From the IMG/VR virus record IMGVR_UViG_2534682080_000009: 21,584 bases of DNA; one strand, written 5' to 3'. A program made the position numbers and the translations under genes. This document shows, one piece after another, positions 1,284 to 21,584 of the stretch (position 1 is its first letter; every line of letters starts with the position of its first letter). Below the pieces are notes generated by a model. That model was given only the letters and a program-made list of their open reading frames with translations, was not told the origin of the DNA and ran no database searches. The stretch is from a virus (lineage: Duplodnaviria > Heunggongvirae > Uroviricota > Caudoviricetes).

Positions 1284-1887
1284 AATTCACAGGTGTTTTT
1301 TCCCATCCTGTGGTTTCCTTGGCGTTTTCTAGGTTTTTTCAGATAGTTGCATTTTTTTAAAAAGCATCCTAAGTTCGATCTCAGTGTCTATCTGGGGCCT
1401 ATTTCTGTCCCATATATGCCCCAAAAAAACTCCCCAACAGATAAGTAGTTTTTTCATGGATTTATGCGTAAAATCAAGAACGGCTGGAAATCATTCAATA
1501 CTCACACTATCGAAAAATTTACCAGCCAATCGCAGCACGTTCTTGCATAAGGCGTGTCTGCGGTTTTTCAACTATTCAGATACATCACTCCCATCACATT
1601 CATTCCTCCGCATCAAAGGCATATAGGCTATATCACCTTGATATTTTTCTTTTTCAGATAAAAACTGTTATCTATGTATACTTTTAAACCCAATCCGTGT
1701 AGAGTCTCTGCATAAGATAGTTTGCAGTTGCCGCTTCAGCTTGCGCCATAAACCGCCTGATTTTTGCTGCCACCTGTTAGCATTCCTGTATACCTGAAAC
1801 GACAATGTTTATCTACGAACTTTAAGAACACCCAAGATAAAAATTGTCAACTATATCATATATAACACATTACTAATTCGAGGCTAT

Positions 1888-2001
1888 ATGAACAGCATAC
1901 TGATAATCACATCTCTCCTTATCATATTCAGCATTTTTAGTCATGCCCTAATAAAATTAGGGATTGGCATATCCAATAACCCAGACAAAACCGATGTATA
2001 A
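1888..2001 (+). CDS. candidate small hydrophobic membrane peptide (37 aa), hypothetical
   Basis: ATG at 1888 preceded by GAGG (1880-1883), stop TAA at 1999-2001. Translation [37 protein letters not shown]: one predicted transmembrane helix plus a short polar tail. It is below the 60-aa cutoff of the ORF track. AT-rich context means a chance ORF is not excluded. Confidence 0.25.
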
Positions 2002-2069
2002 GTCAACATATCCTGAATCAGACATACAATATCGCAATGAAAATCAATAATATTTTAAGGAATATCTTC

Positions 2070-2303
2070 ATGAAATCAAAAGACACCCTAAAGTGGTTCC
2101 CTGCGCAGCTTCCTGAAGTAAGAATTATCCTAGGGGATGCTGTAGTGGAAGTAGCAAAACAGGGAAGACCTATCAATACCAGAACATTGCTTGATTACAT
2201 TGAAGGAAACATAAAGAAAAAATCATGGCTGGATAACAAAGAATTATTACAAACAGCGATATCAGTTCTTAAAGACAACCAAAATTTAAATGGTAAAATG
2301 TAA
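2070..2303 (+). CDS. ydfK: YdfK/YnaE-family small prophage protein (cold-shock-associated, function unknown)
   Basis: The ORF 2037..2303 contains MKSKDTLKWFPAQLPEVRIILGDAVVEVAKQGRPINTRTLLDYIEGNIKKKSWLDNKELLQTAISVLKDNQNLNGKM, recognised as the YdfK/YnaE family. The start at 2070 is preferred because AAGGA lies 9 nt upstream, whereas the ATG at 2037 has no Shine-Dalgarno. Confidence 0.8.
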   Translation: MKSKDTLKWFPAQLPEVRIILGDAVVEVAKQGRPINTRTLLDYIEGNIKKKSWLDNKELLQTAISVLKDNQNLNGKM

Positions 2304-2619
2304 TATAATAAACTTACTTTTTTATCATTTTTCCACTTTAACAACATTTTGCTCCACTTTTCCACGACCAAACAACTTGAAATCTGGTTAAAATAACACG
2401 CAACACTATTCTTCTTCCTTGAGTCCGCCCGGAACTCGAAAAACAAACCGAGTTAAAGCCATTTTTCACAAAATCGATTTTGGGTCTCACCAAAATTACG
2501 GGGTTGCATACGCATTCGTTTATTTTCGAACGTGTACATACAAATATGCACAAAAATAATCATAATTATTTTCTGAGATGCATTATGATATGAACACCAA
2601 TTTCGTATAGAGTCTCACT

Positions 2620-3210
2620 ATGTCTCAAATTTTTGCTTACTGTCGGATATCAACGCTGGATCAGACCACCGAAAATCAACGCCGGGAAATCGAAAGTGCA
2701 GGTTTTAAAATCAAACCTCAGCAAATAATCGAAGAACACATTAGCGGCTCAGCAGCAACCAGTGAGCGTCCTGGTTTTAACCGGTTGCTTGCTCGCCTGA
2801 AATGTGGTGATCAATTGATTGTGACAAAACTGGATCGCCTTGGTTGTAATGCAATGGATATCAGGAAAACAGTGGAACAACTGACCGAAACAGGTATCAG
2901 AGTGCATTGCTTAGCATTGGGGGGCATTGACCTGACCAGTCCAACAGGAAAAATGATGATGCAAGTAATTTCAGCAGTCGCTGAATTTGAACGAGACCTT
3001 TTACTTGAACGCACTCATTCCGGGATAGTAAGAGCCCGCGGCGCAGGGAAACGTTTTGGTCGACCACCTGTGTTAAATGAAGAACAGAAACAGGCGGTAT
3101 TCGAACGAATTAAGTCAGGTGTAAGTATAAGTGCCATTGCCCGGGAATTCAAAACCTCGCGGCAAACCATTTTAAGAGCCAAAGCAAAACTTCAGACACC
3201 TGACATATAA
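2620..3210 (+). CDS. pin: Pin/Gin/Hin-family serine site-specific DNA invertase
   Basis: 196-aa ORF with the serine-recombinase N-terminal catalytic region (YCRISTLDQ with the catalytic Ser, [13 protein letters not shown]) and a C-terminal helix-turn-helix ([17 protein letters not shown]). Recognised as close to the e14/Rac/Qin Pin proteins. Confidence 0.9.
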
Positions 3211-3307
3211 AAAATAATCTCGGTGTGAGATGCTTTACGTCTTCCAAGCCCCCTTCCTTGCCGTAAATGGAAAGATACATCTAATTATAGAATTTATATG
3301 TTTTACC

Positions 3308-3883
3308 CTACGGCAGTGCTGGCCATTCAATATCCTGTGCAGTTGACGTATCAACACGGTTCAGCAATACCCGATACTTTTTCCATGCTTCCAGCAACGA
3401 GATTTCTTCCTCCGTTGCAATTTCCAGATCTGCAGCATCCTGAAGCGGCGCAATATGCTCACTGGCTACCTGCATCAGGTTGTTTTTTGTTTCTTCCGCC
3501 TCCCGGATCCGGAACAGTTTTTCTGCTTCCGTATCCTTCACCCAGGCTGTGCCGTTCCACTTCTGAAACTCCCCTTCCGGCGATAACCAGGTAACATTTT
3601 CCGGTAACGGACCGAGTTCAGAAATAAATAACGCGTCGCCGGAAGCCACGTCATAAACCGTTTTACCCCGATGATCTTCAACGAGATGCCACGATGACTC
3701 ATCACTGTTGAAAACAGCCACGAAGCCAGCCGGAATATCTGGCGGTGCAATATCGGTACTGTTTGCTGGCAGACCTGTATGAGGCGGAATATATGCATCA
3801 CCTTCACCAATAAATTCATTAGTTCCGGCCAGCAGATTATAAATTTTTATGGTCCGTGGTTGTTCACTCATTCTGAATGCCAT
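3308..3883 (-). CDS. tfa: tail fibre assembly protein (Tfa chaperone)
   Basis: 191-aa ORF directly downstream of the tail-fibre C-terminus on the same strand. Its ATG overlaps the stf stop as TAATG, with GAGG 8 nt upstream. Recognised as lambdoid Tfa from sequence and position. Confidence 0.85.
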
Positions 3884-4877
3884 TATGCAAGCCTCACAAT
3901 ATAGTTAAATGCGATGTTTTTGACGGTGTTTTCCGCGTTACCAGCAGCGTTAACGGTGATGGTGTGTCCATGTGAACCAATCGCAACGGAGTGCGTATGA
4001 GCACCAATACCGACAGTATGTGCATGTGCGCCTGCGCTTGCAGCAGTGCCGGACAGCGAGTGGGTATGAGCACCATCTGATGATGTCTTCCCTGCATTAC
4101 GAGTCTGGCCACTACCGCTTGTTGTGCTCATAATCCCCGCGCTTAGATTTGAAATCGCGGTATAACCATTAGGGAAAATGCTCGTGTTCGTGCCACCAAA
4201 TGCACCGGAACTCTTGTGTTGGTGCGCACCGGCACTATTTGCGGTCCCGCTAATACTATGGGTATGCGCCCCGGTGTTATTCGTGGATTTGGTTCCGTAA
4301 TCAAACGACGATGTGGTTTTCGTCCCCAAATCCGTACTGGATGCGCTGGCGCTGTGGGTGTGCGATTTAATGCCGTCCTGTTCCTGAGATAATACGGCCC
4401 GACCACTGGCGGGCTTGCCCTTAATCGTCCAGCCACGCATATCAGGGATCACGCCTGACGGATAAGCAACTGCAAGTTTCGGGTATGCAGATTTGTCAAA
4501 AGTCTGCCCCTGCATCAGGGCATAACCAGACGGAACGGTATCTGATGGCCACGGGATTGGTGCACCGACTGGATAAAACTCTGCAGGAGGATGAGCCGAG
4601 GTGTAAAGCTGCGCCCACGGCGACCAGTTTGCGTCGGTCGTATCCCGTCGTGAACGAATAAATGCCGGAGCATGAGCACCGCTTGTACCACTCCAGCCGA
4701 TGAGTAACTCACCTTCGCCAACGGCTGTCATCCCTTTCAGGTGAATGATATTTCCATACGCTGTTGGATATCCGTTGTTATACACCTCGTATAACTCAAG
4801 ACCTGCTGCCCCCTGCGTATTGTCTGTCAGCGCGGTTACCCGACCTTTTGAAGCCAGATTAACTGATGATACTGCTG
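3883..4877 (-). pseudogene. stf: side tail fibre protein Stf, C-terminal portion, separated from its N-terminal portion by IS3
   Basis: ORF 3883..4890 (the last 13 nt lie inside the IS3 end). The protein has Gly/Ser/Thr-rich repeats with GAHTHS/GAHAHT His motifs typical of phage distal tail-fibre tips. Its frame is continuous with the N-terminal part across the IS3 junction (codon phase checked by hand). Confidence 0.8.
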
Positions 4878-4907
4878 TGATCCTACCCACGTAATATGGA
4901 CACAGGC

Positions 4908-5774
4908 CTAAGCGAGGTTCTTGTTTTCAAATTGTTCCGGACTGAGGCCGCCACACCAACTGTGCCGCCGCCACCGATTGTAATCACATTCGATATAATT
5001 AAACACCGTTGCCCGCATTATTTCCCGGCTGATAAAGTGTTCTCCATGGATACATTCCACTTTCAGCGAATGAAAGAAGCTTTCCACGCAGGCATTATCG
5101 TAGCAGCAACCTTTTGCGCTCATACTTCCACGCAGATTATGCCGCTTCAGTTGCGCCTGATAATCTGCTGAACAGTACTGGCCTCCACGGTCCGTGTGAA
5201 CGATAACGTTCCGGGGCCTCTTACGCCGCCACAGCGCCATCTGCAGGGCATCGCAGGCCAGTTGCGCCGTCATGCGTGGCGACATTGACCAGCCAATAAC
5301 GGCACGTGACCACAGGTCAATGACCACTGCCAGATACAGCCAGCCTTCATCTGTACGTAAGTACGTGATGTCTCCTGCCCACTTCTGGTTCGGGCCACTG
5401 GCGTAAAAATCCTGCTCCAACAGATTTTCTGACACAGGCAGGCCGTGTGCGCGGTAGCTGACCGGGCTGAACTTCCGGGAGGCCTTTGCCCTCAGTCCCT
5501 GACGGCGCAGGCTTGCCGCCACGGTTTTTACGTTAAAGGGGTAACCCTGAGCACGCAGTTCATCCGTCAGGCGTGGGGCACCGTAACGCTGTTTTGACCG
5601 GGTAAAAGCCGCGAGGACAACGCTGTCGCAGTGTTGGCGGAACTGCTGACGCGTGCTTATCCTTGTCCGCCGCTGACACCACGTATACCAGCCGCTGCGG
5701 GCCACCCGGAGCACGCGGCACATTGCTTTGATGCTGAACTCAGCCTGATGTTTTTCAATAAAGACATACTTCAT
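4908..5774 (-). CDS. insF: IS3 transposase OrfB (integrase/DDE catalytic part, made as an OrfAB fusion by frameshifting)
   Basis: 288-aa ORF recognised as IS3 OrfB (DDE-type domain, e.g. WAGDITYL...HTDRGGQY). Its start overlaps the orfA stop as ATGA. Confidence 0.9.
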
Positions 5775-6070
5775 TTCAGGCGCTTCGCGAAGTATGTCGC
5801 GGCCTTTTGGAGGATAGCCAGCTCTTCATCCCGTTCTGCCAGCTGGCGTTTGAGACGTGCAATCTCGGTAGACATCTCCAGTTCACGTTCAGAAGACGTC
5901 TGCTGATTTTGCTGTTTACTGCGCCAGTTGTAGAGTTGTGATTCATACAGGCTGAGTTCACGGGCTGCGGCAGTAACACCGATGCGTTCAGCAAGCTTCA
6001 GGGCTTCACTGCGAAATTCAGGCGAATGCTGTTTACGGGGTTTTTTACTGGTTGATACTGTTTTTGTCAT
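5771..6070 (-). CDS. insE: IS3 transposase OrfA (HTH DNA-binding part)
   Basis: Translation [54 protein letters not shown]... recognised as IS3 OrfA. ATG at 6070. Confidence 0.9.
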
Positions 6071-6135
6071 GTGAGTCACCTCTGACTGAGAGTTTACTCA
6101 CTTAGCCGCGTGTCCACTATTGCTGGGTAAGATCA

Positions 6136-8218
6136 CTGTTCCACCTGACGGTAACGCCCCGATCTCTGATGCCGTTGGCTTATTTCTGGAGTTATAGTCC
6201 CTTCGCCAGCCAGGTGAATAATCTGTTCCGTGATTAATATAGGTAAACTGGGCGTTAGTTGTTCCACCACCAGTGGAGGTGGTCGGTGTGGTAATGCGGA
6301 TCGTCATCGCTGACTTTATCCCCATTACTTCAATGACAGCTCCGGCGAGATGAATATTACCGCAGTCAGTATCAGTAATGATTTTATTATTGCCATAAGA
6401 CCAGGAACCCTTGCACATCCAGTATGGATGGTTAAATGCTCCCTGAGAATCCAGCCACTCGATAAACTGTGCAGTCGTCCAGTTTCCTGTTGTTGTGCTT
6501 ACTGACCCACCGAAGGCACGGCAGGCACCAATATTTTTCGTAAAGGTATCTTTGCCAGGGATATCCGCACCGTTCTGATCTTTCTGCAGACGTTTCTCAG
6601 CATTGTCATTGGCTGCTTTTACTGCCTTTGGTGTCGCGGCAAGCGTTTCAGACGTGCTGTTGGTCGCGCTGCTTAGCTGGATTATCCCTTTCTGTGCTGT
6701 CGTTGCATCCTGTGCGGTGTATTTCCCGTTAGCCAGGTCATACGCGGCCTTAACGGCTTTTGGTGTTGCCGCCAGTGACTCGGAAGTGCTGTTAGTCGCA
6801 CTACTGAGCTGTACTATCCCCTTTTTCGTCGTGCTCGCATCCTCAAGCGCCACGGCGGATGCAATATCCTCTGCCCGTTTTGCTGCTGTCTCGGCGCGCG
6901 TTGCTGCGGATTCTGCCGTACTTTTGCTCTGAGCTGCCGCCGTCGCACTGCCAGCAGCCTCTGTCGCCTTCGTGGATGCCGTCGTGGCGCTGCTCTTCGC
7001 TGCTGACGCTTGTCTGGTCGCCTCATCTTTTGAAGCAGACGCCGATGATGCCGATGACGCCGCCGAACTGGCTGACGATGCGGCAGCCGTTTTTGAGGAT
7101 TCTGCGCTGGTTTCCGACGCTTTCGCGTTCGTTTCGGATGTCTTCGCTGCGGAAGCAGACCTCGCTGCTGCGCTGGCCTGTTCAGTGGCTTCGCCAGCCT
7201 TCGTTGTGGCTGTTGAAGCAGACGATGCAGCACTTTCTGCCGATTTTCCGGCGGCGGTGGCACTGGCTGAGGCCTGCCCGGCACTTGTTGACGCGGCACT
7301 GGCAGATAATGCAGCCGCTGTTTTTGAGTCTGCCGCAGCTGAGGCGCTCTGTCCCGCTGCCGTTTCAGAAGACCTGGCGTTCGTCTCGGACGTTTTTGCC
7401 GCCTTCGCAGAATTTGCTGCCGCCGTTGCCGAGGAAGCTGCGCTGCTGGCGCTCGAGGCTGCGTTCGTTTCTGATGATTTTGCCGCCTCTTTTGAAGCCG
7501 ACGCATCCCGGGCTGAGGTGGCAGCTTCTGACGCTTTCGTGGTCGCGGTGGATGCAGAAGTGGCTGCTGATTGTTGTGACGCTGCAGCATTCGTTTCTGA
7601 CGTTTTCGCGGCACTGGCACTGGTAGCTGCCGCGCTTTTTGAGGACTCTGCAGCGGCAGCACTTTTTGATGCTTCAGTGGCCTTTGTTGATGCCGTTCCT
7701 GCGCTGGAAGACGCTGACTGAGCCGACGAAGCGGCCTGTCCGGCTGACGTGCTGGCTGCGCGTGCTGAGCCTGCAGCATCAGTCGCATGGGTTGCCGCCT
7801 CACGGGCAGATGTGCCGGCATCGCCGGCTGACTTCTTCGCGGCTGCCGTGTTCTGTGCCACCGCGGACGCGTTACGCGCCACCTCTTCCACCATCAGTTC
7901 AAAACGGCGCAGAGCCTCCGGACGGGCATCATCCTCCGTCATGGCACCGAGAAAATCATTCAGCGTACCGGGTCGGGAATCTTCATACACGGTGATGGTC
8001 CCGGCATGTGACGGCGGGAATCCTTCCACCAACAGAATAACGCTGTACTGACCGTACTCAACGTCCATGCTGTAACGCCCGGCTTCATCCGGATTTTCTG
8101 AGGCCAGCGTGTTCACCACCACCGCGGTGCTGTTACGTTTTGCTTTCAGCTGGATTGTGCAGTTCTGTACCGGTTTTCCTGTGCCGTCTTTCAGTACACC
8201 TGAAATCTTTACTGCCAT
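6136..8218 (-). pseudogene. stf: side tail fibre protein Stf, N-terminal portion, truncated by the IS3 insertion
   Basis: ORF 6098..8224 reads MAVKISGVLKDGTGKPVQNCTIQLKA..., followed by a long Ala/Ser/Thr-rich low-complexity region and two KGI(V/I)QLSSATNSTSE(S/T)LAATPKAVKAA phage-fibre repeats. The ORF then runs 38 nt into the IS3 end before a stop. The likely start is the ATG at 8216-8218. Confidence 0.8.
6617..6832 (-). repeat. two ~75-bp imperfect direct repeats (period ~132 bp) inside stf, encoding the tail-fibre repeat motif
   Basis: DNA copies at about 6621-6694 and 6750-6828, encoding GI(I/V)QLSSATNSTSE(T/S)LAATPKA. Read directly from the sequence. Confidence 0.5.
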
Positions 8219-8228
8219 ATTCACCCCA

Positions 8229-8256
8229 CAAAAAAGCCCGCCTGAACAGGCGGGCT
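8229..8256 (-). terminator. putative intrinsic terminator downstream of lom
   Basis: Perfect 10-bp GC-rich inverted repeat AGCCCGCCTG/CAGGCGGGCT (8235-8244 and 8247-8256), followed on the minus strand by a run of six T (8235..8230). Confidence 0.5.
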
Positions 8257-8282
8257 GTCATAACACTGTGTTACCTGGCTAA

Positions 8283-8882
8283 TCAGAACTTATAACCGAC
8301 ACCCACGATGAAACCGTCAGTGCGCCAGTCGCCACTGCCGGAGCCTTCATAAGCAATATCAATGGCCACGGATTCGGTCGGGTTAAACTGCACGCCAGCT
8401 CCCCACGCCAGAGACGTGTTGCTGTGGCGACCGTCATCACTTCCGGTCAGCACGTCGTGCGTTTTCCCCTTGTTGTCAGTTACGCGGAGATAATCCCCGG
8501 AGAAAGTCGACACACGGCTGTAAGCCATACCCGCCATCGCATACGCGCTGAACCATTCATTCACGCGCACAGACGGCCCCACCATCACGCTGAACCAGCG
8601 GTTACGCACGGAATCTTCATGCCAGCGGGTATCGCTGTAACGGGTAAGCTGGCGATTCTTGTCTCCTGCATAGCTGAATGACGTCACCAGCCCCAGTGTG
8701 TCCGTAAACTCATAACGGTATTTCACGTTAATCCCGTTAAGATCATCGCTGCCGGGAACGTTCGTCGAGGCATGAAGATACCCCGCGCTCAGCGTGGACT
8801 GATGTTCAGATGCCCATGCAGGCGCACCGGATACGGCCAGACAAATGGCTGCGGACAAAATGGCGGCATAAAGTTTACGCAT
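8283..8882 (-). CDS. lom: Lom outer-membrane protein (Ail/Lom family beta-barrel, lysogenic-conversion moron)
   Basis: 199-aa ORF with a signal peptide ([24 protein letters not shown]) and a C-terminus ending [25 protein letters not shown], recognised as Lom. It sits between J and stf as in lambda. GAGAGG Shine-Dalgarno before the ATG. Confidence 0.85.
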
Positions 8883-8904
8883 AATTACCTCTCGCTTTTC
8901 TGCA

Positions 8905-8930
8905 ATAAAAAAGGCACCATTTCTGGTGCC
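8905..8930 (-). terminator. putative intrinsic terminator between J and lom
   Basis: 7-bp stem GGCACCA/TGGTGCC (8913-8919 and 8924-8930) with a 4-nt loop, followed on the minus strand by TTTTTTATT (8912..8905). Confidence 0.45.
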
Positions 8931-8951
8931 CTTATATGGGTTATAACAATT

Positions 8952-11900
8952 TCAACGAATACTGATGCCGGAAGCGGCTTTTTTGGTCACAATCACCGTA
9001 CAGTCGGTGATATTGCCTGCCCCCTGATTGCCTTTCTGGAAAATCTTAAACTCCAGAGTGACGCTACCACCACCACTAGGCATATCAATAACTGCACTGT
9101 AACTACCGGGAATGGCCCCTTTAGTTTCTCTGGATGCGATTAATACGCCGTTTTTGCGAACTTCAAAACCATAACCCGTGTATCGCGTGCCTCCTGGGTT
9201 ATTTCCGCTCCCCGGATCGTCATACGCTATACCGTTAAAAATAATGGGCGGAATAATAATCTGGCGGTCAAAGTTATGATCATCGCTGATGGTGACTGTA
9301 ACCGTACCGTTTGGTGTTTCCGTGTTACCCCACGTACCGACTTTTTTCGGGAAGGCTTTTGATACAGCTTTAACGATATCCCCTCTGACCTGGGTCGCCT
9401 CCAGCATGCCCTTAATCGTACAGTTCTGGTTAATCGTGACATTGTTGAGCGTTCCTGAGTTCGCATTCACACTACCACTGATATCCGCATTTTTAGCGGT
9501 CAGCTTTCCGTCTGATGTCAGGGAAAATACCGGAGGACTGCCACCGCTGGTAATGGTGGGGGCCGTCAGGCGTTTCAGGAACACTTCATTCATGAATATC
9601 TGATCGCCCTGACCAACAAACATCGGCTTTTGTGTTGCCATTCGCAGGATTAATCATCGCAATCCTGTCTGCTGCCAGCAGCACCTGACTCTGCATGCCG
9701 TCAGGGGTGTTCTCAATACCGGCACCGATACCCGCAATATAAAGGCGTCCGTCCTGCATCTGCTGCAGCTTCACTGCCCACATGCTGTTCAGGTTATTAT
9801 TTGTATCAACCTGAACCTTCTGTATCTGCTGGATTGCCGCACTCTGGTCTTCCAGTTTCTTATTGACGGTCTGTGTTATTTCATTGCTGACATCCGTTAT
9901 GGTCGTCCTGATTTCAGTCAGGTCAGGCGCAAGCTGACCGTTATCAATCTGCGTCCACAGCTCCTGAGCCAGATGGGTTTTCCCTATCTCGCCTTTGAAA
10001 AAATCCAGATAGCCTGATGCATCATCACTCGGCTGACCGACAGCCTCCACGAATGCCGATTTGCCAACGGTGTTCACACTGCGAACGTAAAAATAATAAT
10101 CATGGCCCGGTTTGATATTGATACTGGCGGCTATCCAGTACAGTGCCGTACCAAGATAACGCGCGCTGGTTTCAACCTGCCTGATATCCGCAATCCGTTT
10201 TTCCGAGAACCAGAACTCAAACTGTACCGTCGGGTCATAAACCGCAAGATGCGGCGTGGCGGTTATCTGAAAATAGCCCGGCGTCAGCTCAATCCGCGAC
10301 GGCGCTGCCGGTGCGGCAATCCGGAACGATACCGACGCCGGATCGCCCTGCTGCCCCCACGCATTTACTGCCCGGACTGTCAGCCTGTAGTTCCCCAGAG
10401 CCAGTTGTGTGAAGCGGTAAGTGGTTTCCGTCGTCCGGGCCGTGCTGACCAGCCGCTCACGGCCGTCATCCGCTGCCACGGTCAGGCGAAGCAGGAAGCT
10501 CACGCCCTTCACCACCTTCGGCGTGTCCCAGCGCGCCAGCACCTGGTATTCCCCGCTGTCTGCGGTGACTTCTGCGGTCAGGTGCTGCACCGCTGGCGGC
10601 GTGACACCATTTACCGTGCCGCTCTGGTCGCCGTCAAAGTGCGCCCCGTTATCCACGATGGCCTCTTTTTCCGGTACATGCTGCACGGCGGTGATGGCAT
10701 ACGTGCCGTCGTCGTTCTCACGGATACTCACGCAGCGGAACAGGCGCTGGCGCAACGTCGACAGCTTCAGCCCCCATACGCTGTATTCAGCAACGCCGTC
10801 AGGAACACGGCTCACTTTCACCTTCACGCCGTCGGTGACGGACTGAACCTCCACGCTGACCGGACTCCCCTGCCCGTCAACCAGGCTTATCAGCGTGGTG
10901 CCGGAAGATGGCAGCGTGATTTCACGGTCGAGCGTCAGCGTCCGGGTCTGGCTGTTTACCGCCAGCACGCGCCCGCCGGTGCGGATACCGGCATAGTCAT
11001 CATCGCAGATTTCAATGACATCGCCCGGTACATGGCGAAGCCCTTCGGCACCCACGCTGAAGTCCACGGTCTGCGTTTCCAGCAGTTCTGTTTTAATCAG
11101 CCACAGCCCGGCGCGGTGTGCCTGCCCCCGGCTGGTACAGCCAAAAGCATCCATCTTCGTGACGTTACGACCGTAACGGGCAATGGCCCGCGTGTCCTCC
11201 ACAAGCTCTGTCGCCGTCTCCCAGCCGTTATTCGGGTCAATCCAGTTCACCTCAACGGCATTATGGCGGTCCTTCAGGGCGCTGAAGCTGTAGCGGAACG
11301 GCGCACCATCATCCGGCATCACCACATTACTGCGGTTATAGGTCCACACCTTATCCGACGGTCGGTCCTGCACGAACGTCAGCGTCTGCCCGTTCCATAC
11401 CGGCATACAGCGCATCGCAGAGCAGAAATCACTGAGCACATCCCACGCCTTGCGCTGTGTGGTCAGGTACGCATTACAGGTGATGCGCGGCTCTGTGCCG
11501 CCAAAACCGTCCGGCACCGACTGATCGCAATGCTGGCCGATGACATACAGCGCCCATTTGTCCACATCCGCCGCACCAAGACGTTTCCCCATGCCGTAGC
11601 GCGGATGGGTCAGCATATCCCACAGACACCAGGCCATGTTGTTGCTGTATGCTGGCTTAAACGTTCCGTCCCAGATACCGCTGTATTGCCGCGTCTGCGG
11701 GTTATAGTTCGACGGCACCTGCAGAATGCGCCCGCGCAGATGATAATTACGGCTCACCTGCTGGCTGCCGAACTGCTCCGAATCCACCTGCACGCCGACC
11801 AGTGCCGTGTTCGGGTAGCACTGTTTCACATCGATGATTTCGGTGTATGACGACCAGAGCGTTTTGTTCTGCAGCTGGTCTGTGGTGCTGTCCGGCGTCA

Positions 11901-12450
11901 TCCTGCGCATCCGTATATTGAACGGGCGCGGCGGCAGGTTACCCACCACCACCGAGGCCAGATACTGCGAGGTGGTTTTGCCCTTAATGGTGATGTCTTT
12001 TTCCGTCACCCAGCCACCATTACGCTGGATCTGAACCAGCAGGCGGACTTCCGACGGATTCCGGTCCCCCTTTGAGGTGGTTTCCACCAGTGCCTGCACG
12101 CCGAAGGTAAAGCGCAGACGGTCGATGTTTGCAGACGTAATGGTGCGGGTGATCGGCGTGTCATATTTCACTTCCGTACCCAGCACCGTCTCGGAGCCGG
12201 AGGATTCAAACCCCTCCGGCGGTGTCTGCTCCTGCTCACCGGCACGGAACACCACCGTGACACCGGAGATGTTGGTATTCCCCTCAGTGTCCAGCACCGG
12301 CGTACTGTTCAGCAGCACGCTTTTTAATCCATCCACCGGACCTTCAACCGGCCCTTCGCTGATGGCATCGATCACACTCAGCAGCTGCGTGGACTTCAGG
12401 TTGTCCTTCGCTTCGCGCGGGGTATGCCCCTTACTGCTGCCTTTACCCAT
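8952..12450 (-). CDS. J: tail tip / host-specificity protein J (central tail fibre); frame broken near 9625-9631, possible pseudogene or sequencing error
   Basis: ORF 9586..12450 (954 aa) starts [34 protein letters not shown]..., recognised as lambda gpJ. It is continued in another frame by ORF 8952..9641 (229 aa). The two overlap by 56 bp, consistent with a single-base indel. Confidence 0.85.
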
Positions 12451-12510
12451 TCCTCACGCTCCATAAATGACAAAACCGCCCGCAGGCGGTTTCACATAAA
12501 ACATTTTGCA

Positions 12511-13182
12511 TCAGCGACCAATCACCACAACCTGACCACCGTCCCCTTCGTCTGCCGTGCTGATCTCCTGAGAAACCACGCGAGACCCCACGCGCATTTC
12601 CCCGTACAGAACAGGCAGAACATTGCCCTGGGCAACCATGTTATCCAGTGAGGAGAAATAGGTGTTCTGCTTACCGTTATCCGTTGTCTGTGTACGGGGA
12701 GTTCTGGCTTTCGGTGCCAGCATCTGCGCCACACCACCGAGCACCATACTGGCACCGAGAGAAAACAGGATGCCGGTCATACCACCGGTCCCAATGGCTG
12801 CCCCCCATGCTGCAAGGGTGGCTCCGGCGGTAAAGAATGATCCGGCAATGGCGGCAGCCCCCAGGACAATCTGGAATACGCCACCTGACTTGGCCCCGGC
12901 GACTCTGGGAACAATATGAATCACAGCGCCATCAGGCAGAGTCTCATGTAACTGCGCCGTTAACCCGGACGTGCTGACGTCCCGCCCGGCAATCCGTACC
13001 TGATACCAGCCGTCGCTCAGTTTCTGACGAAACGCCGGGAGCTGTGTGGCCAGTGCCCGGATGGCTTCAGCCCCCGTTTTCACACGAAGGTCGATGCGGC
13101 GACCAAATCGTTGTAAATCCCCGTAAAGGCAGATGCGCGCCATGCCCGGTGACGCCAGAGGGAGTGTGTGCGTCGCTGCCAT
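12511..13182 (-). CDS. I: tail tip assembly protein I
   Basis: 223-aa ORF MAATHTLPLASPGMARICLYGDLQRFGRR... recognised as lambda gpI. Its 5' end overlaps the 3' end of K by 103 bp. Confidence 0.9.
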   Translation of the reverse strand: MAATHTLPLASPGMARICLYGDLQRFGRRIDLRVKTGAEAIRALATQLPAFRQKLSDGWYQVRIAGRDVSTSGLTAQLHETLPDGAVIHIVPRVAGAKSGGVFQIVLGAAAIAGSFFTAGATLAAWGAAIGTGGMTGILFSLGASMVLGGVAQMLAPKARTPRTQTTDNGKQNTYFSSLDNMVAQGNVLPVLYGEMRVGSRVVSQEISTADEGDGGQVVVIGR

Positions 13183-13824
13183 TTGTCGGTGTACCTCTCT
13201 CGTTTGCTCAGTTGTTCAGGAATATGGTGCAGCAGCTCGCCGTCGCCGCAGTAAATTGCGGCGTGATTCGGCACTGATGAACCAAAACAGCACAGCAGCA
13301 CATCGCCCGGCTGTGCCGCTGACAACGGCACCTGATACAGCCCCGTCGCCTCCAGATTATCCAGATAGAGATTCTGGCCGTTACGCCACCAGTCATCCTC
13401 ACGATAAAAGTCCGGCATCTCAATCCCCGCCAGATGATAAGCATCCCGGAACAGTGTGTAACAGTCCGTCACACCGTGCTCAAAGCGCCGCCCGGTGAGA
13501 TGCGGCACACAGCGGAACTTATGAATCGTCCCCCGGCAGACCAGCCACCACGGCAAAATCACTCTGCACCTGCAGCCGCCGGTCGGCCTCACTCAGCCAG
13601 GGCAGACCACCGGGGTGGCTGTGGACCAGCGCCACAATCTCACCCTGCATTTCTGCCTGCAGCCAGTCTTCCGGCGACATACGGAAATACGCCTCCGGCT
13701 CACCGGAGATATTCACGCAGGGAAAATATCTTTCCCCCTCCGGCGTGCTTACCACGAAGCCGCACGACTCCGCTGGCGCACATCGCCGGGCGTGCGCCAG
13801 AATCGCTGATTCTGTCTGTGTCAT
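13080..13824 (-). CDS. K: tail tip assembly protein K (JAMM/MPN-like plus NlpC/P60-like); frame broken near 13555-13558
   Basis: ORF 13519..13824 (MTQTESAILAHARRC..., with the JAMM-like motif HSHPGGLPWLSEAD) and ORF 13080..13592 (..LPWWLVCRGTIHKF..., Cys-containing NlpC/P60-like part) are in different frames. The break falls at a T run (minus strand GATTTTGCC). Confidence 0.8.
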
Positions 13825-13829
13825 GGGAT

Positions 13830-14527
13830 TTACTGCGAAAGTTTGTTAATGGAAAGGAAGCTGCCAAAGTTGCCGACATTATTGCGAAACTTACAGCCAC
13901 TCAGGCATTTGCTGCATTTATCCTTCGTGATATCGGACGTCGGCTGGTCATATTCATCCGCGACCGCCGGACCGCTATAACCGCACTCATCGCCGCGATA
14001 GGTCCAGGTGCAGGTGTTGGCCAGCATGATACGTCCCGGAAAAACAGCGCCATCCGTTTCCGTCGGCGTGGACAGTACAAAGGAGGCACTCACCGCGCTC
14101 AGTTCGCTGCACTGCTCAATGCGCCAGCGGCTGATCACCTCCTGCTCCGGATCGGCGTAACTGTTTCCGTTGACGAAGTTCACCGCATCCAGAAAACGGG
14201 CGTAAACCTTACGCCGGACCACCGTTCCGCCGACCAGACTCTGCATATCTTCCGCCATCCCGGTGACCATACCGTACAGGTTAGAAACCGTCAGCGTGGG
14301 GCGCGTACTGGTGCCTTTGCCATTCAGTTCAAAACCGCTCCCCTGAATGGGATACGGCTGATACTGTCGCCCCTGCCAGGTGACCGGCTCACCTTTTTCG
14401 TTCTGCTCATTACAGAAAAATAACGTTCTCCACCGACCTCTGTCAGGTCGATTTCCCAGAGCACCACGCTGGCCGACTGCTCCGCACGGGTGCATTCATT
14501 CAGTGTTTCCTGCCGGATATCCTGCAT
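13830..14527 (-). CDS. L: tail tip protein L; frame broken at 14416-14420
   Basis: ORF 14324..14527 starts MQDIRQETLNECTRAEQSASVVLWEIDLTEVGGERYF and ORF 13830..14495 carries the remainder, ending with the Cys cluster KDKCSKCLSGCKF. The frame switches at a T5 run on the minus strand. The ATG overlaps the M stop as ATGA. Confidence 0.85.
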
Positions 14528-14856
14528 CAGTTCACCACCTGTTCAAACTCTGCGCTGAACTCAACACGCAACATACTGACCCGCGACGACCATTTTACGC
14601 AGGTCACCTTTATCTGCCGCCACTCATAAGGCGGCGTCCACAGAAAGGATTTCCAGCCCCCGTGCTCTTCCAGAAACGACTCCAGTACCGTGGCCTCCTC
14701 ACGGGGGACAGAAAGCGTCACGCTGTACGTTTTCAGGTTGGCATTCAGCCCGGCAGGCGCTCGCTGAGAATAGCCATCACCAAAGCGCACCTTTCTTACA
14801 GAAGGGACCGAAGCCACATCCATACCGGGTTTCACTTTCCAGCGGAAGGTCTTCAT
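14527..14856 (-). CDS. M: tail tip protein M
   Basis: 109-aa ORF MKTFRWKVKPGMDVASVPSVRKVRFGDGYSQRAPAGLNANLK... recognised as lambda gpM. Intact. Confidence 0.9.
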   Translation of the reverse strand: MKTFRWKVKPGMDVASVPSVRKVRFGDGYSQRAPAGLNANLKTYSVTLSVPREEATVLESFLEEHGGWKSFLWTPPYEWRQIKVTCVKWSSRVSMLRVEFSAEFEQVVN

Positions 14857-17415
14857 CGTCCACCTCCGGAGAACAGGCCACCATCACGCATCTGTGTCTG
14901 AATTTCATCACGGGCACCCTTGCGGGCCATGTCATACACCGCCTTCAGAGCAGCCGGACCTATCTGCCCGTTCGTGCCGTCGTTGTTAATCACCACATGG
15001 TTATTCTGCTCAAACGTCCCGGACGCCTGCGACCGGCTGTCTGCCATGCTGCCCGGTGTACCGACATAACCGCCGGTGGCATAGCCGCGCATCAGCCGGT
15101 AAAGATTCCCCACGCCAATCCGGCTGGTTGCCTCCTTCGTGAAGACAAATTCACCACGGTGAACAATCCCCGCTGGCTCATATTTGCCGCCGGTTCCCGT
15201 AAATCCTCCGGTTGCAAAATGGAATTTCGCCGCAGCGGCCTGAATGGCTGTACCGCCTGACGCGGATGCGCCGCCACCAACAGCCCCGCCAATGGCGCTG
15301 CCGATACTCCCGACAATCCCCACCATTGCCTGCTTAAGCAGAATTTCTGTCATCATGGACAGCACGGAACGGGTGAAGCTGCGCCAGTTCTGCTCACTGC
15401 CGGTCAGCATCGCCGCCATATTCTGTGCAATACCATCAAAGGTCTGCGTGGCTGCACTTTTTACCTGCGACATACTGTCCGTGGCGCTCTCTTCCCACTC
15501 ACTCCAGCCGGACTTCAGGCCTGCCATCCAGCTCCCGCGAAGCTGGTCTTCAGCCGCCCAGGTCTTTTTCTGCTCTGACATGACGTTATTCAGCGCCAGC
15601 GGATTTATCGCCATACTGTTCCTTCAGGCGCTGTTCCGTGGCTTCCCGTTCTGCCTGCCGGTCAGTCAGCCCCCGGCTTTTCGCATCAATGGCGGCCCGT
15701 TTTGCCCGTTGCTGCTGTGCGAATTTATCCGCCTGCTGCGCCAGCGCGTTCAGGCGCTCCTGATACGTAACCTTGTCGCCAAGTGCAGCCAGCTGGCGTT
15801 TGTACTCCAGCGTCTCATCTTTATGCGCCAGCAGGGATTTCTCCTGTGCAGACAGCTGGCGACGTTGCGCCGCCTCCTCCGGTACCGCGAACTGACTCTC
15901 CGCCTTCCACAAATCCCGGCGCTGCTGGCTGATTTTCTCATTTGCTCCGGCATGCTTCTCCAGCGTCCGGAGTTCTGCCTGAAGCGTCAGCAGGGCAGCA
16001 TGAGCACTGTCTTCCTGACGATCGCCCGCAGACACCTTCACGCCGGACTGTTTCGGCTTTTTCAGCGTCGCTTCATAATCCTTTTTCGCCGCCGCCATCA
16101 GCGTGTTGTAATCCGCCTGCAGGATTTTCCCGTCTTTCAGTGCCTTGTTCAGTTCTTCCTGACGGGCGGTATATTTCTCCAGCGGCGTCTGCAGGCGTTC
16201 ATAAGCCTTCTGCGCCTCTTCGGTATATTTCAGCCGTGACGCTTCGGTATCGCTCTGCTGCTGCGCATTTTTGTCCTGTTGACTCTGCTGCTCAGCCTTC
16301 TTTCGGGCGGCTTCAAGCGCAAGACGGGCCTTTTCACGATCATCCCAGTAACGCGCCCGCGCTTCATCGTTAACAAAATAATCATCCTTGCGCAGATTCC
16401 AGATATCGTCCGCTTTCTTAAACGCGGCCTCTGCCTTAATCAGCATCTCCTGCGCGGTATCAGGACGACCAATATCCAGCACCGCATCCCACATGGATTT
16501 GAATGCCCGTGCTGTCCTGTCTGCCCAGGTTTCCAGCGTGCCCATGTTCTCTTTCAGGCGGCGGGTCTGGTCATCAAACCCTTTCGTTGCGGCCTCGTTC
16601 GCCGCCTGCAATGCCCCGGCTTCATCGCCGGAACGCTGCAACTGAGCAACATACGCAATCTGCTCCGCCGTCACGTTACTGGAACTGGCGTGCCATCGCC
16701 GTCAGCCCGACGTCGGGTCTGTGGTCAGCTTCCCGAAGGCTTCAGCGACCTTGTCCACCTCCACGCCGGATGCAGAGGAGAAACGCGCCACACTCTGGCT
16801 GATGGACGCAATCTGAGCCTCACCGCTTACCCCCGCCTTAACCAGTGCGCTGAGTGACTCGCTGGTCTGGTTAAACGTCAGCCCTGCCGCCTGCCCGGCT
16901 CTGGACAGGACCAGCATACGATCTGCCGTCAGTCCCGCCTGATTGCCGGAAAGGACCAGCGTTTTGTTGAAATCGGACAGGGTTGAGTTGCCCTGATACC
17001 AGGCATACGCCAGCGCTCCGGTCGCCACCGCCAGCGAGGTAGCCCCCACCATCGGCAGGGTGATCGCACCGGCAAGCCCCCGGAACATGGGGATCATCCC
17101 GCCGAAGGAGTCCTTCACCTGACCCCCCTGTTGCAGCAGGATCAGCCACGGACTTTGCCCGCCTGCAAGCTGCGTGGCCACGTCGGTGAACTGTGCAGGC
17201 AGCATACGCATGGCGGCTTTATACTGCCCGACGGAAATCCCCGCTTTCTGTGCAGCCAGCGCCTGTCGGCTCAGCGACTGTTCAACGACTGCCGCTGTTT
17301 TTTTCGCATCAGTTTCCGTACCGGAAAAATGACGCCTGACTCTGGCCATCTGCTCGCCAAATCTGGCCGCATCCAGACTTAAATCAACGACCAGATCGCC
17401 TACCGGTTCAGCCAT
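14853..17415 (-). CDS. H: tail tape measure protein H; disrupted by an internal out-of-frame patch with an in-frame TGA (about 16677-16708) and a further frameshift (about 15601-15609)
   Basis: Three consecutive ORFs (16702..17415, 15586..16674, 14853..15614) together give an 853-codon tape-measure-like protein (MAEPVGDLVVDLSLDAARF... to ...RDGGLFSGGGR) with a coiled-coil Ala/Gln/Glu/Lys-rich centre and Gly-rich C-terminus. The first two ORFs are in the same frame, separated by a 9-codon scrambled stretch. Confidence 0.85.
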
Positions 17416-17842
17416 ACCGGACTCCTCCTGCGATCCCTTCTGATACTGTCATCAGCATTACGTCATCCTCCGTCATGTCCGCCACATCCGGGGAAGCGGG
17501 GATAACTTCATTCCCTTCCGGGCCAAAGCGGACGCCTCCGGCAAGCCCTGCCGCTTTCTGCATCAGCACATCATCTTCAGGCTCTTCGTCAGCCTCACGC
17601 CGGTTCAGCAGACTGAAATCCAGCGGATGCATATCCGGATCGCTGAAAAACAGGCTGAGCACGGTGTACGTCAGCCCGGAAAAGTGCATATCCAGCAGAA
17701 CATCATGAAAATAATGGGTACTGTAAAAGCGGTGCCAGTCGGCATACTCCGTGGATGACATCCCGGCAAGCATGGCACGCCAGTCGGGTCGCCCCATCTC
17801 TCGCGCCAGTTTCAGGGCAAAACTCAGCTCACCATCGAACAC
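17408..17842 (-). CDS. T: tail assembly protein T reading frame (expressed as the G-T fusion by programmed -1 frameshift)
   Basis: 144-codon frame overlapping the 3' end of G, translation ...HRFYSTHYFHDVLLDMHFSGLTYTVL... recognised as lambda gpT. No independent Shine-Dalgarno expected. Confidence 0.8.
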   Translation of the reverse strand: MFDGELSFALKLAREMGRPDWRAMLAGMSSTEYADWHRFYSTHYFHDVLLDMHFSGLTYTVLSLFFSDPDMHPLDFSLLNRREADEEPEDDVLMQKAAGLAGGVRFGPEGNEVIPASPDVADMTEDDVMLMTVSEGIAGGVRYG

Positions 17843-18246
17843 TTTCCCGCAGAAACAGGCTCTGCAGGCCCGGCGTCCTCTGTCTGTTCAGGAGCATCAT
17901 TCACCACAAACTCATACATACCGGACAGCCGGTACACCACGTTTTCAGCATGAGAAATTGCCTCCGTGGGCCAGGTGGTAAGCACTTCCTGCTCAATCTG
18001 TTTAACGGCTTCATTCATGGAAGGCAGCTTTGTCTTCTTCGGATGGTTATGCCACAGGGACATCGCCACCAGAAACGCGCCGGTTCTGATGGCGTCTTCC
18101 ACAGTAAACTTCCGGTTGCTGTCTGACTCCGCCTGTTCTGCCTGCCGTTTCATCAGGGCGAGATGCTCAATACGCTGCAGGGCTGACAGTTCAGAAAGCG
18201 TGACGGTCACACCGTTATGTTCAAATGATTCGGTTTTCAGGAACAT
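17824..18246 (-). CDS. G: tail assembly chaperone G
   Basis: 140-aa ORF MFLKTESFEHNGVTVTLSELSALQRIEHLALMKRQAEQ... ending ..AGKCSMVS, recognised as lambda gpG. Confidence 0.9.
   Translation of the reverse strand: MFLKTESFEHNGVTVTLSELSALQRIEHLALMKRQAEQAESDSNRKFTVEDAIRTGAFLVAMSLWHNHPKKTKLPSMNEAVKQIEQEVLTTWPTEAISHAENVVYRLSGMYEFVVNDAPEQTEDAGPAEPVSAGKCSMVS
17842..17848 (-). other. programmed -1 ribosomal frameshift slippery heptamer GGGAAAG (G to G-T)
   Basis: Minus-strand sequence ...TCT GCG GGA AAG TGT TCG ATG GTG AGC TGA: GGGAAAG sits 6 codons before the G stop and the -1 frame continues into T. Confidence 0.7.
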
Positions 18247-18261
18247 CTCTGACTCCCCGGA

Positions 18262-19004
18262 TTAACTGGCGGTGACGGTGATTTCTGCAACCGCAGCAAA
18301 CTCACCATTACCGGATACAACCGGAATGTTGACCTTGCCTGCAGCAACGCCGTTCACGGTGACGGTCATACCACTGACCGACACGGTGGCTTTTGTTTTA
18401 TCCGCAGACACCGCACGAAAGCTCTTGTCGGTTACGCCCTCCGGCTGGAAGGCCACGGTCAGCGTGGTGCTCTGCCCTTTCACCACCGAGGTGCTGGCAG
18501 GCGTCACGGTCATGCCGGTTGCCGCTGTTACCGTGCTGCGATCTTCTGCCATCGACGGACGTCCCACATTGGTGACTTTCACCGTGCGGGTGATCACTTC
18601 CTTCGCCGTCTACCGCCTTACCGATACTGCTGACCCAGCCACGGAACACATCGACCGTGCCGTTCGGGAAGCGGATTTTATAGGCACGGGTATCGCCTTC
18701 ATTAAACCACGCCAGCAGCGCCTGCTGCCCCTGCTCTCCGGGCATCCACGCCAGCGTGAAGCTGGTATCTCCGGCAGATTTCTGCCCCTGCCCGGTCGCA
18801 GTCCAGTCTGCATCTTCATCATCGAGATAGCTGTCGTCATAGGACTCAGCGGTCAGTTCGCCGGGCGTCAGGTCTTTAACTTTTGCCAGACGCGACCAGT
18901 CAACGTCTGAAAGCGGATTTCGCATAAGGGTCACCGCTCCCCTTATAAACCCACAGGGTGGTCCCGGCACCTTTCACCGGCATTGTAGGATTTGGTACAG
19001 GCAT
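18262..19004 (-). CDS. V: major tail tube protein V; frame broken twice (about 18918-18920 and 18604-18612)
   Basis: ATG at 19004 gives [28 protein letters not shown] then leaves frame. ORF 18398..18970 carries ..[29 protein letters not shown]...VSSIGKAV in a second frame. ORF 18262..18597 carries [20 protein letters not shown]...AEITVTAS (Ig-like C-terminal domain) in the third frame. Confidence 0.85.
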
Positions 19005-19011
19005 AGCGTCC

Positions 19012-19407
19012 TCACATTTCATAGGTAATGACATAAGTCAGATCGGCTGAACTCCACAGGCCCGCATCATCGTCGCGCCGGTAGTCATAGCCGCTGGCCA
19101 CCATACTGGTGATCAAATCTGACAGTGCCGGGATATCGCTCATCACCGGATAAATCCGGGACTCCATCCACGCATCCAGCTCTGAATCCGGCACCTGAGC
19201 AGGCAGGAAAACTTCGATATGCAGCTCCGCCTGCCAGGTATCGCTGTCCAGCTCTTCGCCCGTGTATTCAGCGCCGGTGAGATAAACGGCAACTGCCGGA
19301 AAATCCGCCTCATCAAAAACAGCGGGGCGACCATCAAAAAACGTCGCCCCGGTGTCATGCTTCTCCAGTGCATCCAGTACGGCTGCACGGAGTTCAGTAT
19401 GTTTCAT
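19012..19407 (-). CDS. U: tail terminator protein U
   Basis: 131-aa [46 protein letters not shown]... recognised as lambda gpU. Overlaps the Z stop as ATGA. Confidence 0.9.
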
Positions 19408-19982
19408 CGCTTTATTACCATCCTCAGTTGATGCTGCAGCGCATAGCCCAGCTCTTTCGGAAGACGTTCACGCCGTATCCGCTCAATATTCTGTTTAAAC
19501 GCCGTGGTCAGCGGCACCGCCATCGGGATTTTCACCACATCAATGGGGTAACGGTTTTTCCCGGCCACACGCTGCATGACATGCCACCGGCCATTTTTCA
19601 GTTGCTGAATAAACGCGCCGGGAATACGACGGTTACCCACCACAAGCACGCTGCCGCCACCTTTCAGGGATGAACGCTGCCCCTTTTTACGACGCCTGCG
19701 GCGCGAAAGGACAACCCGCGCATTACCCAGCTTGATTACGGGCAAATCCCCCCGGTTAACTTTGATTCTGGCCTGCGGATTTTTGACCGTGGCCCTTTTC
19801 AGCCTGGCCCTTTCCTTTACCAGTTTCCGGCGTACCTTTGTCTCACGGGCAACTTGTGACGCCGACTGCGATATCGCGGATGAAGCAACGCGGTTAATGG
19901 CCATTGCGGCGGCACCAGGCACCGCCGTTTTGCTGATACGGCTGAGGTTTTCAACGGCCTGCTCAAGACCTTTTATGGCCAT
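19404..19982 (-). CDS. Z: tail completion protein Z
   Basis: 192-aa ORF MAIKGLEQAVENLSRISKTAVPGAAAMAINRVASS... recognised as lambda gpZ. Confidence 0.9.
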   Translation of the reverse strand: MAIKGLEQAVENLSRISKTAVPGAAAMAINRVASSAISQSASQVARETKVRRKLVKERARLKRATVKNPQARIKVNRGDLPVIKLGNARVVLSRRRRRKKGQRSSLKGGGSVLVVGNRRIPGAFIQQLKNGRWHVMQRVAGKNRYPIDVVKIPMAVPLTTAFKQNIERIRRERLPKELGYALQHQLRMVIKR

Positions 19983-19993
19983 ACATCCCCCTT

Positions 19994-20347
19994 TCAGCGG
20001 CGACGGTTAACGGCAGGCGGTACGCCCCGTCCAAGCCAGAGATGACAACTTCCGCCATCATCCGGCGAAACCCGATCTACCCAGAAATTTTCCTCACCGA
20101 TGGTCAGCGTGTCTCCACGCCGCAGCTGCCGCACCTCATCAGTCCGGACAAACAGGGACGGGCTGGAGCCTTCAACGCGCACGCCCTGTCCGGCATAGCT
20201 GATATTTTCAGGGTCATCAAAAACACCACGTATCACCGCACCTGACTGCTCACCGGATGTCATGGTGGCTGACGTTCCCATGTACCCGCGTATCGTTTCA
20301 TCGGCGCGGGCAATGGCAGCATCGAACAGGTTATCGAAATCAGCCAC
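19994..20347 (-). CDS. FII: head-tail joining protein FII
   Basis: 117-aa ORF MADFDNLFDAAIARADETIRGYMGTSATMTSGEQSGAVIRGVFDDPENI... recognised as lambda gpFII. Confidence 0.9.
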   Translation of the reverse strand: MADFDNLFDAAIARADETIRGYMGTSATMTSGEQSGAVIRGVFDDPENISYAGQGVRVEGSSPSLFVRTDEVRQLRRGDTLTIGEENFWVDRVSPDDGGSCHLWLGRGVPPAVNRRR

Positions 20348-20358
20348 AGCGCCTCCCG

Positions 20359-20757
20359 TTATTGCATTCTGGCCAGGCCGCGCTCTGTCATTTCGGCTGC
20401 CACACCGGCAGAGACACGAAACGCCGTTCCCGGCAGCACAAATGCCACAGGTTCATCCCGCGTGGCGTGAAGTGCATCAGTATGCAGCTTCACCAGTGCC
20501 ACGACCGTGACCAGTTCAGACGTATCCAGAATCACGGTATCCGGCTGCGCTGATCCCACCTCATTTTCATGTCCGGTCAGCACATTTTCCCGGCTGAGAG
20601 GGGTGTCCTGACCGGCAGTTTCATCCGTGTCATCAAGCTCCTCTTCCAGCTCTGCCACACGGAGCGCCAGTTCTTCTTTCGTCCCCGTCAGGCTGACATC
20701 ACGGTTCAGTTGTTCACCCAGCGAGCGGAGACGGGCAATCAGTTCATCTTTCGTCAT
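20359..20757 (-). CDS. FI: DNA packaging protein FI
   Basis: ORF 20359..20796. The likely start is the internal ATG at 20757 (MTKDELIARLRSLGEQLNRDV...), preceded by GGAGGAG, giving 132 aa as in lambda gpFI. Confidence 0.85.
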   Translation of the reverse strand: MTKDELIARLRSLGEQLNRDVSLTGTKEELALRVAELEEELDDTDETAGQDTPLSRENVLTGHENEVGSAQPDTVILDTSELVTVVALVKLHTDALHATRDEPVAFVLPGTAFRVSAGVAAEMTERGLARMQ

Positions 20758-20798
20758 GGACTCCTCCACAGAGAAACAATGGCCCCGAAGGGCCATGA

Positions 20799-21584
20799 TT
20801 ACGCCAGTTGTACGGACACGAACTCATCAGGGTCAGCCAGCAGCATCAGCGGTGCTGACTGAATCATGGTGAACTCACGCGCCGGATCGCCGGTGGTCAC
20901 CCAGTTTTTCGGGTAACGGGCAGAGGCGTTAATGCCTTCGCGCTGTGCGTCCGCATCCTGAATGCAGCCATAGGTGCGCAGACCGCGTGCCTGAGTGTTC
21001 CCCAGCACCATCGTGTTGTCCGGCAGGAAGTTCTTTTTGACGCCGTTTTCCACGTACTGTCCGGAATACACGACGATGGCCACATCGCCATACATCCCCT
21101 TATAGGACACCGCTTTGCCCAGGTCTTTCACCGCTGTCTCCAGCTCGGAATGAGAGCCACGACGGGTATCCAGCTTCTCCTTGACGGCTTTGAAGGAACG
21201 GAACAGCGCCCAGCCTTTCGGATCGAACACGATGATATTCACCACACCGCTGGCGTTCAGCGCGTAGGCTTCGATATCGTCGGTCGGGTCATACGTGGAC
21301 TTGTCACGCTTGCTCCACTCCGTGCCGCCGGACTGCGTGATGTTATTCTCCTCACTGCGGCCCATATCCACCTCAACCGGATCGAAGGCTTCACCGGTCA
21401 TGGTGTATTTGCCCTTAAGCACGGCAGAAACTGCCTGCATCTCTTCGACCTGAGCAATGGCCAGCTCTTCGTCACGCATGTTCTGCATGATGATGCGACG
21501 GCGGCGGTAAGCCGGGTCCGCCAGATTCTGCGGATCTTCATCCGGCAGGCGACGCAGGGTCATCTGCGGATTCACTTCATGCTT
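20799..21584 (-). CDS. E: major capsid protein E, C-terminal ~261 codons (5' end lies beyond the window)
   Basis: The frame is open to the window edge, translation ..KHEVNPQMTLRRLPDEDPQNLADPAYRRRRIIMQNMRDEELA... ending ..DEFVSVQLA, recognised as lambda gpE. The ORF-track start at 21575 is an internal GTG. Confidence 0.9.
   Translation of the reverse strand, partial: KHEVNPQMTLRRLPDEDPQNLADPAYRRRRIIMQNMRDEELAIAQVEEMQAVSAVLKGKYTMTGEAFDPVEVDMGRSEENNITQSGGTEWSKRDKSTYDPTDDIEAYALNASGVVNIIVFDPKGWALFRSFKAVKEKLDTRRGSHSELETAVKDLGKAVSYKGMYGDVAIVVYSGQYVENGVKKNFLPDNTMVLGNTQARGLRTYGCIQDADAQREGINASARYPKNWVTTGDPAREFTMIQSAPLMLLADPDEFVSVQLA

Follow-up and report, generated by a model that had tools for sequence, protein, structure and literature searches.

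Two frameshifts in the tail tube gene V of a lambda-like prophage in the draft genome of Escherichia coli G58-1 are probably local consensus errors

Results

The prophage and its source contig

The stretch of DNA analysed here (hereafter the window, 21,584 nt) carries on its minus strand the lambda-like gene order E-FI-FII-Z-U-V-G-T-H-M-L-K-I-J-lom-stf-tfa, followed by pinQ, ydfK and a ydfJ' remnant. The presence of these last three after the tail genes places the prophage at the Qin/ydfJ site of E. coli. The window corresponds to positions 98422-120005 of AFDX01000016.1 (120,006 bp; E. coli G58-1, GCA_000225165.2), a draft whole-genome-shotgun contig of the 2011 era, and contig positions are obtained by adding 98421 to the window position. 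The contig ends one base past window position 21584, inside the major capsid gene E. This end is consistent with a repeat boundary, at which the head genes would be common to another prophage of G58-1. Exact look-ups of the frameshifted fragment proteins, EGX10835.1 and its neighbours, deposited under the name Escherichia coli G58-1, led to this record.

AFDX01 belongs to G58-1, a porcine non-enterotoxigenic strain of serotype O101:K28 (PMC4358887). The neighbouring accessions AFDQ, AFDU, AFDW, AFDY and AFEA derive from 454 Titanium sequencing of 3-kb paired ends, with assembly by Celera Assembler 6.0 (PMC3491183). From these neighbours we infer that G58-1 went through the same 454/Celera pipeline, which is not stated for AFDX/G58-1 itself. 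Our literature search yielded the identity of the strain and the platform of the neighbours, and no paper on the sequencing of G58-1.

Gene V as deposited and after repair

Gene V, which encodes the major tail tube protein, occupies positions 18262..19004 on the minus strand, between U and G, and measures 743 nt here versus 741 nt in relatives. An alignment of this region to lambda J02459 and to the complete E. coli genomes F41 and XJW9B263 showed exactly two extra bases and one substitution. The first insertion (18918..18920), after codon 28, gives AAA in place of AA, by which GCG AAT becomes GCG AAA T. The second insertion, after codon 131, is an extra A at 18611, between T18612 and G18610 (GGT GAC to GGT A GAC); there is no homopolymer at this site, which lies directly 5' of GACGGCG. 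The substitution, private to G58-1, is an A to G change at 18363 that converts ATC into GTC (I214V).

Read from the ATG at 19004-19002, the gene continues to ...TAT GCG AAA TCC GCT TTC AGA CGT TGA, where the TGA is 18902-18900. The deposited V has no uninterrupted ORF of ~246 codons, being closed by stops at 18902-18900 and at 18400-18398. The consequence of the two +1 insertions is that the N-terminal, middle and C-terminal Ig-like pieces lie in three different frames. The first piece (18900..19004), defined from the ORF list and the repair, has 34 codons plus the TGA, and its codons 1-28 are authentic V. The second (18398..18925) comprises V residues 29-131 and then an out-of-frame tail; its GenBank entry is EGX10835.1, 'major tail protein V', of 175 aa with PF16461. 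The third piece (18262..18610) holds V residues 132-246, including the C-terminal Ig-like domain (Big_2, PF02368).

When A18920 and A18611 were removed in silico, a 741-nt ORF of 246 codons was restored, identical to lambda gpV in 245/246 residues with I214V as the exception; as deposited, the V DNA departs from its relatives at only three positions. The tube domain PF16461 is followed by PF02368 (Big_2), as seen from Pfam matches on the called fragments of 175 aa and 49 aa, and the order Z-U-V-G-T-H is found both in the ORF list and in annotated relatives. Judged by sequence, domains and synteny, V is a member of the lambda gpV family.

An earlier note on this DNA had recognised the gene as lambda V, broken by same-direction single-base shifts into pieces in three frames, and the comparison with lambda bears this out, both shifts being +1 insertions. 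The extra A that it saw in GCG AAA TCC (18918-18920) is likewise confirmed by AA at this place in lambda, F41 and XJW9B263. At the second site, GTA GAC GGC G, the frame loss is real and due to A18611, and the site is not a homopolymer, as had been said (GGT-GAC to GGTAGAC); the coordinates then assigned were one base off, the motif being 18613-18604.

Fifteen differences confined to V-J

Base-by-base comparison of the whole window with the nearest complete genome, XJW9B263, revealed 8 single-base indels (two in V, three in H and one each in L, K and J) and 7 isolated substitutions, all within 9377-18920. Besides the two extra A of V (18920 and 18611), the tape-measure gene H (14853..17415, minus strand) has lost a G from a GGGG run (GGG at 16706-16708) and gained a G at 16679 and an A at 15606; the missing and the extra G are 30 nt apart. 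As deposited, H lies in pieces of 237, 362 and 253 aa. Downstream, on the same strand, a T6 run of L is shortened to T5 after codon 36 (14416-14420), a TTT of K is extended to TTTT after codon 89 (13555-13558, extra T at 13558), and an AAA of J is extended to AAAA after codon 940 of 1165 (9628-9631, extra A at 9631). J is thereby split into 954 and 223 aa and K in two, and L is called from an internal start only (221 aa versus 232). The genes near V thus contain indels of both signs, +1 and -1, with immediate stops.

The 7 substitutions are I214V in V, D20G (17357) and L512P (15881) in H, A87V in M, and Q421R, S850T and F1025I in J, those of J being located at 11189, 9903 and 9377. All seven are nonsynonymous and none falls at a third codon position; five are transitions, four of them A:T to G:C. 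V is therefore not special within the tail module, and the real, V-specific lesion implied by the earlier note is not supported, since six more indels and seven nonsynonymous substitutions share the same 9.5 kb and the 15 differences are private.

The flanks

Upstream of the affected region, the 2.66 kb from E to U (18921-21584) show zero differences from the reference. On the other side, positions 1-9376, which cover lom, the ends of stf, tfa, pinQ, ydfK and ydfJ', contain no private indel, and the adjoining chromosome outside the window, over 3.9 kb (ydfI, ydfZ, ydfH, ydfG and the start of dcp), is intact and equally without a private indel. Against the closest relative found (L009), a flank of 5.3 kb shows 1 substitution and no indel. 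Altogether, ~14.5 kb of flanks have 0-2 private differences and no private indel, versus 15 differences in the 9.5 kb of V-J; in a scan-type calculation, the probability that all 15 events fall within 40% of the examined sequence is P ~2e-5.

This distribution bears on the possibility of real pseudogenisation, in which the tail module would have gained 8 frameshifts and 7 missense changes in the G58-1 lineage and the prophage would make heads but no tails. Such decay requires 15 mutations in V-J while sparing flanks that comprise intergenic DNA, the head genes of the same prophage and ydfJ', itself a dead remnant, and no neutral divergence comparable to that of V-J was seen in these flanks. 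The clean flanks argue equally against poor quality of the whole assembly, which we rejected given the 5.3 kb without an indel relative to L009 and the absence of private indels from E-U and from lom to ydfJ'. By comparison, two other assemblies, L007 and L011 (GCA_033660135.1 and GCA_033660265.1), have genes fragmented everywhere, including the housekeeping genes ydfI, ydfH and dcp; theirs is genome-wide indel noise, whereas the flank of G58-1 is clean.

Other features of the flanks were examined. In the ydfJ' remnant (~1105-1110) an A6 run is reduced to A5, and 347 blocks list the 367-aa ORF that results. We considered the missing A at ~1110 as a ninth error and rejected it, as it is common to many genomes and represents a true polymorphism of a gene that was dead beforehand. 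The side-tail-fibre gene stf is interrupted by IS3 at ~4879-6135. An apparent inversion of this IS3 relative to XJW9B263 was also dismissed, the IS3 of XJW9B263 being a separate insertion, oppositely oriented and 94 bp from that of G58-1; two independent IS3 insertions in stf suggest a local IS3 target hotspot. Also in stf, positions 7229-7459 hold 14-16 clustered substitutions relative to the nearest relatives, and no indels; this block resembles a patch brought in by recombination, in a fibre region that is repetitive.

Distribution of the alleles

The V-J region (~9.5-9.7 kb) gave one and the same score with 12 or more complete E. coli genomes of human, cattle, pig and turkey origin, and G58-1 differs from all of them; their equal scores imply that these genomes are identical to one another over V-J. 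Among 5,426 complete genomes, the best match to V is 99.6%, which corresponds to the two gaps and one mismatch, and no top-ranked genome comes closer over V-J than the reference with its 15 differences. We screened 136 other lambdoid loci for the 15 G58-1 alleles and found none, the reference alleles being present in 3 to 130 of these loci. A search of IMG/VR found neither of the V insertions, and JGI metagenomes likewise lacked the second; at this second site (18611), at least 120 viral contigs have the wild-type 26-mer. At the protein level, five of six frameshift fragments checked in ~15 billion proteins, including Logan assemblies of public runs, were found on AFDX01000016.1 only, and the fragment of L was also found on a second contig of the same collection. 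The variant is, in other words, private to one assembly, as expected of an artefact. A lesion inherited by related isolates, as expected of decay, was not seen: no relative carries any of the 15 changes, neither L009 nor the 12 or more genomes with identical V-J, and the finding of five of six fragments on a single contig also speaks against real decay.

Two unrelated V genes in public data are frameshifted as well, at positions other than those of G58-1, one in an 841-bp ENA contig (P0002) after ~codon 134 and the other in a 6.2-kb NCBI contig (P0003) after ~codon 143. Both shifts enter the same alternative frame as the middle V piece of G58-1, and the lesion of P0002 lies at most ~10 nt from site 18611.

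A split gene may still yield a full-length product if the ribosome shifts at both V sites by programmed recoding. The tail operon offers a precedent, a genuine programmed -1 frameshift two genes downstream of V (G/GT), and we found the slippery heptamer GGGAAAG of lambda intact at 17842-17848, in the G-T overlap. V and G/GT would have in common a frame change in a tail-assembly gene of the same operon. The likeness ends there: G/GT uses a heptamer that is conserved in all relatives and the V sites have neither heptamer nor conservation. V would need two +1 shifts to restore its frame, and GCG AAA TCC and GGT AGA CGG match no known slippery or hungry-codon motif. The V sites contain no X XXY YYZ heptamer and no prfB-like CUU UGA C, the nearest stop context being CGT TGA C without a Shine-Dalgarno sequence just upstream. 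Recoding sites are normally conserved, and the split arrangement is absent from all homologues examined (136 loci, and the top-scoring matches from 5,426 complete genomes). The indels of both signs with immediate stops in the neighbouring genes further oppose it. We rejected programmed +1 frameshifting in V on these grounds, lack of conservation, lack of a shift motif and neighbouring indels of both signs, and regard its probability as negligible.

Another explanation places the fault in a chimeric consensus of two co-assembled prophage copies, where each inserted base would be the alternative SNP allele kept beside the first (GCG/GCA giving GCGA). In its favour, two IMG/VR contigs carry GCA for GCG at 18920, one IMG/VR contig carries GGGT for GGGG at 16706-16709, and a contig end inside the head gene E is what a repeat boundary would produce. 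Across 8-11 diverse tail modules, however, there is no variation at the six remaining indel sites or at any of the seven substitution sites, and the 136 loci contain no G58-1 allele. Seven nonsynonymous changes out of seven are unlike the natural alleles of a functional paralogue, and two coincidences out of six sites are within chance for a paralogue of 95.6% identity. The idea that collapsed paralogues left both alleles in place mostly fails, with natural SNPs matching at 2/8 indel sites and alleles found in 0 of the 136 loci, and we hold the chimera to be extremely unlikely. Import of the private substitutions as natural alleles by recombination was also rejected, as all are nonsynonymous, lie at otherwise invariant positions and are absent elsewhere.

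Error spectrum and sequence context

In E. coli mutation-accumulation lines, indels and substitutions stand at ~1:10, and in mismatch-repair-deficient lines at ~1:5. The 8 indels among 15 differences in V-J are far above either ratio (P = 1.5e-5 to 1.4e-3 if indels, from these general background rates, make up 9-17% of events), which is a point against real decay. An excess of indels (8 versus 7 substitutions) together with no signature of selection (7/7 nonsynonymous) is what an artefact would leave. A mismatch-repair mutator was considered and rejected, as its indels favour long runs, where only 1/8 of the present ones lies, and it would not spare the flanks.

Six of the eight indels lengthen or shorten an existing run and two lie outside runs. 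Just one is in a run of at least 5 bases, though V-J has 40 such runs, and in this sense the classical 454 profile, a link to long homopolymers, was not found. Substitution errors are uncommon in 454 data.

We compared the sequence context of sites 18920, 15606, 18611, 16706-16708, 16679, 13558 and 9631. The AA to AAA events both occur directly before TCCGCT (AATCCGCT), and the reference locus has only two such sites. Three indel events are followed within 0-6 nt by TGACGGCG, and two 3-base runs with indels directly by GCCG. In a Monte Carlo test, three of eight random sites shared any common 8-mer in that position with P = 0.0006. That the context recurs among these sites, with no such lesion recurring elsewhere, suggests a systematic technical cause and not a natural hotspot.

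Discussion

As judged from sequence comparison, the V frameshifts are likely to be sequencing or consensus errors in a locally poor stretch of a 454-era draft, and not part of the bacterial DNA; they are thus probably not a real biological feature. A possible explanation may be that the V-J consensus was built from few or problematic reads. One plausible cause would be that the assembler took a tail module common to another lambdoid prophage as a repeat, an idea that fits the contig break inside E, and context-dependent read errors could thereby have survived into the consensus. A locally poor consensus would explain at once the privacy of the changes, the excess of indels, the lack of a selection signature, the dependence on context and the clean flanks.

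There are also observations that run counter to an error. The indel profile is unlike that of a textbook, well-covered 454 consensus, and the IS3 copy in AFDX01000016.1, itself a repeat, has no indel. With clean flanks, generally low quality does not explain the changes, and a cause peculiar to this stretch must be assumed. Compared with known indel errors of 454-era drafts, the changes in V-J agree in being single-base indels, 6/8 of them in existing runs, and private to one draft assembly; they differ in that 1/8 is in a run of at least 5 bases, two are outside runs, 7 substitutions come alongside and all are confined to 9.5 kb. In this sense, the earlier note was right that the non-homopolymer second site argues against a purely homopolymer-type artefact; such a site rules out the classical long-homopolymer error only, and errors due to low depth or to context in the consensus are untouched by that argument.

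Real decay also has points in its favour. The deposited sequence does contain the indels; two insertions are not of the homopolymer type, and long runs account for just one indel. Most substitutions (5/7) are transitions, a plausible biological spectrum, and changes that are all nonsynonymous are expected from unselected decay. Moreover, the prophage already has one real disruption, the IS3 in stf. The present prophage shares with the cryptic lambdoid prophages that decay at Qin/ydfJ its site, next to the ydfJ' remnant, ydfK and pinQ, and it is a lambdoid prophage with a real IS3 in stf. The known decay at this site proceeds mainly by large deletions and IS insertions that are common to related strains; the point lesions of G58-1 are, unlike these, private, indel-rich and regionally confined. 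Taken with the evidence from flanks, relatives and indel share given above, real pseudogenisation, the main rival, appears unlikely. A stronger version, in which the 15 changes are a real mutation burst, regional, context-dependent and rich in indels, that disarmed only V-J of an otherwise unchanged prophage, seems to us very unlikely; if true, it would mean that localised error-prone synthesis or a targeted inactivation acts on prophage structural genes.

Taken at face value, V would yield a 34-residue peptide only and no tail tube, with truncated products from H, L, K and J as well. Real frameshifts would leave the prophage of G58-1 unable to build tails, which would be a minor and ordinary case of prophage decay. 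V and its tail module are no new kind of element, and neither reading raises a new question in phage biology. On the likelier reading, that of a local consensus error, the message is a cautionary one: 'pseudogenes' with multiple frameshifts in 454-era drafts can be local consensus errors even outside homopolymers, and the fragment proteins EGX10823 to EGX10835 should not be taken as natural variants.
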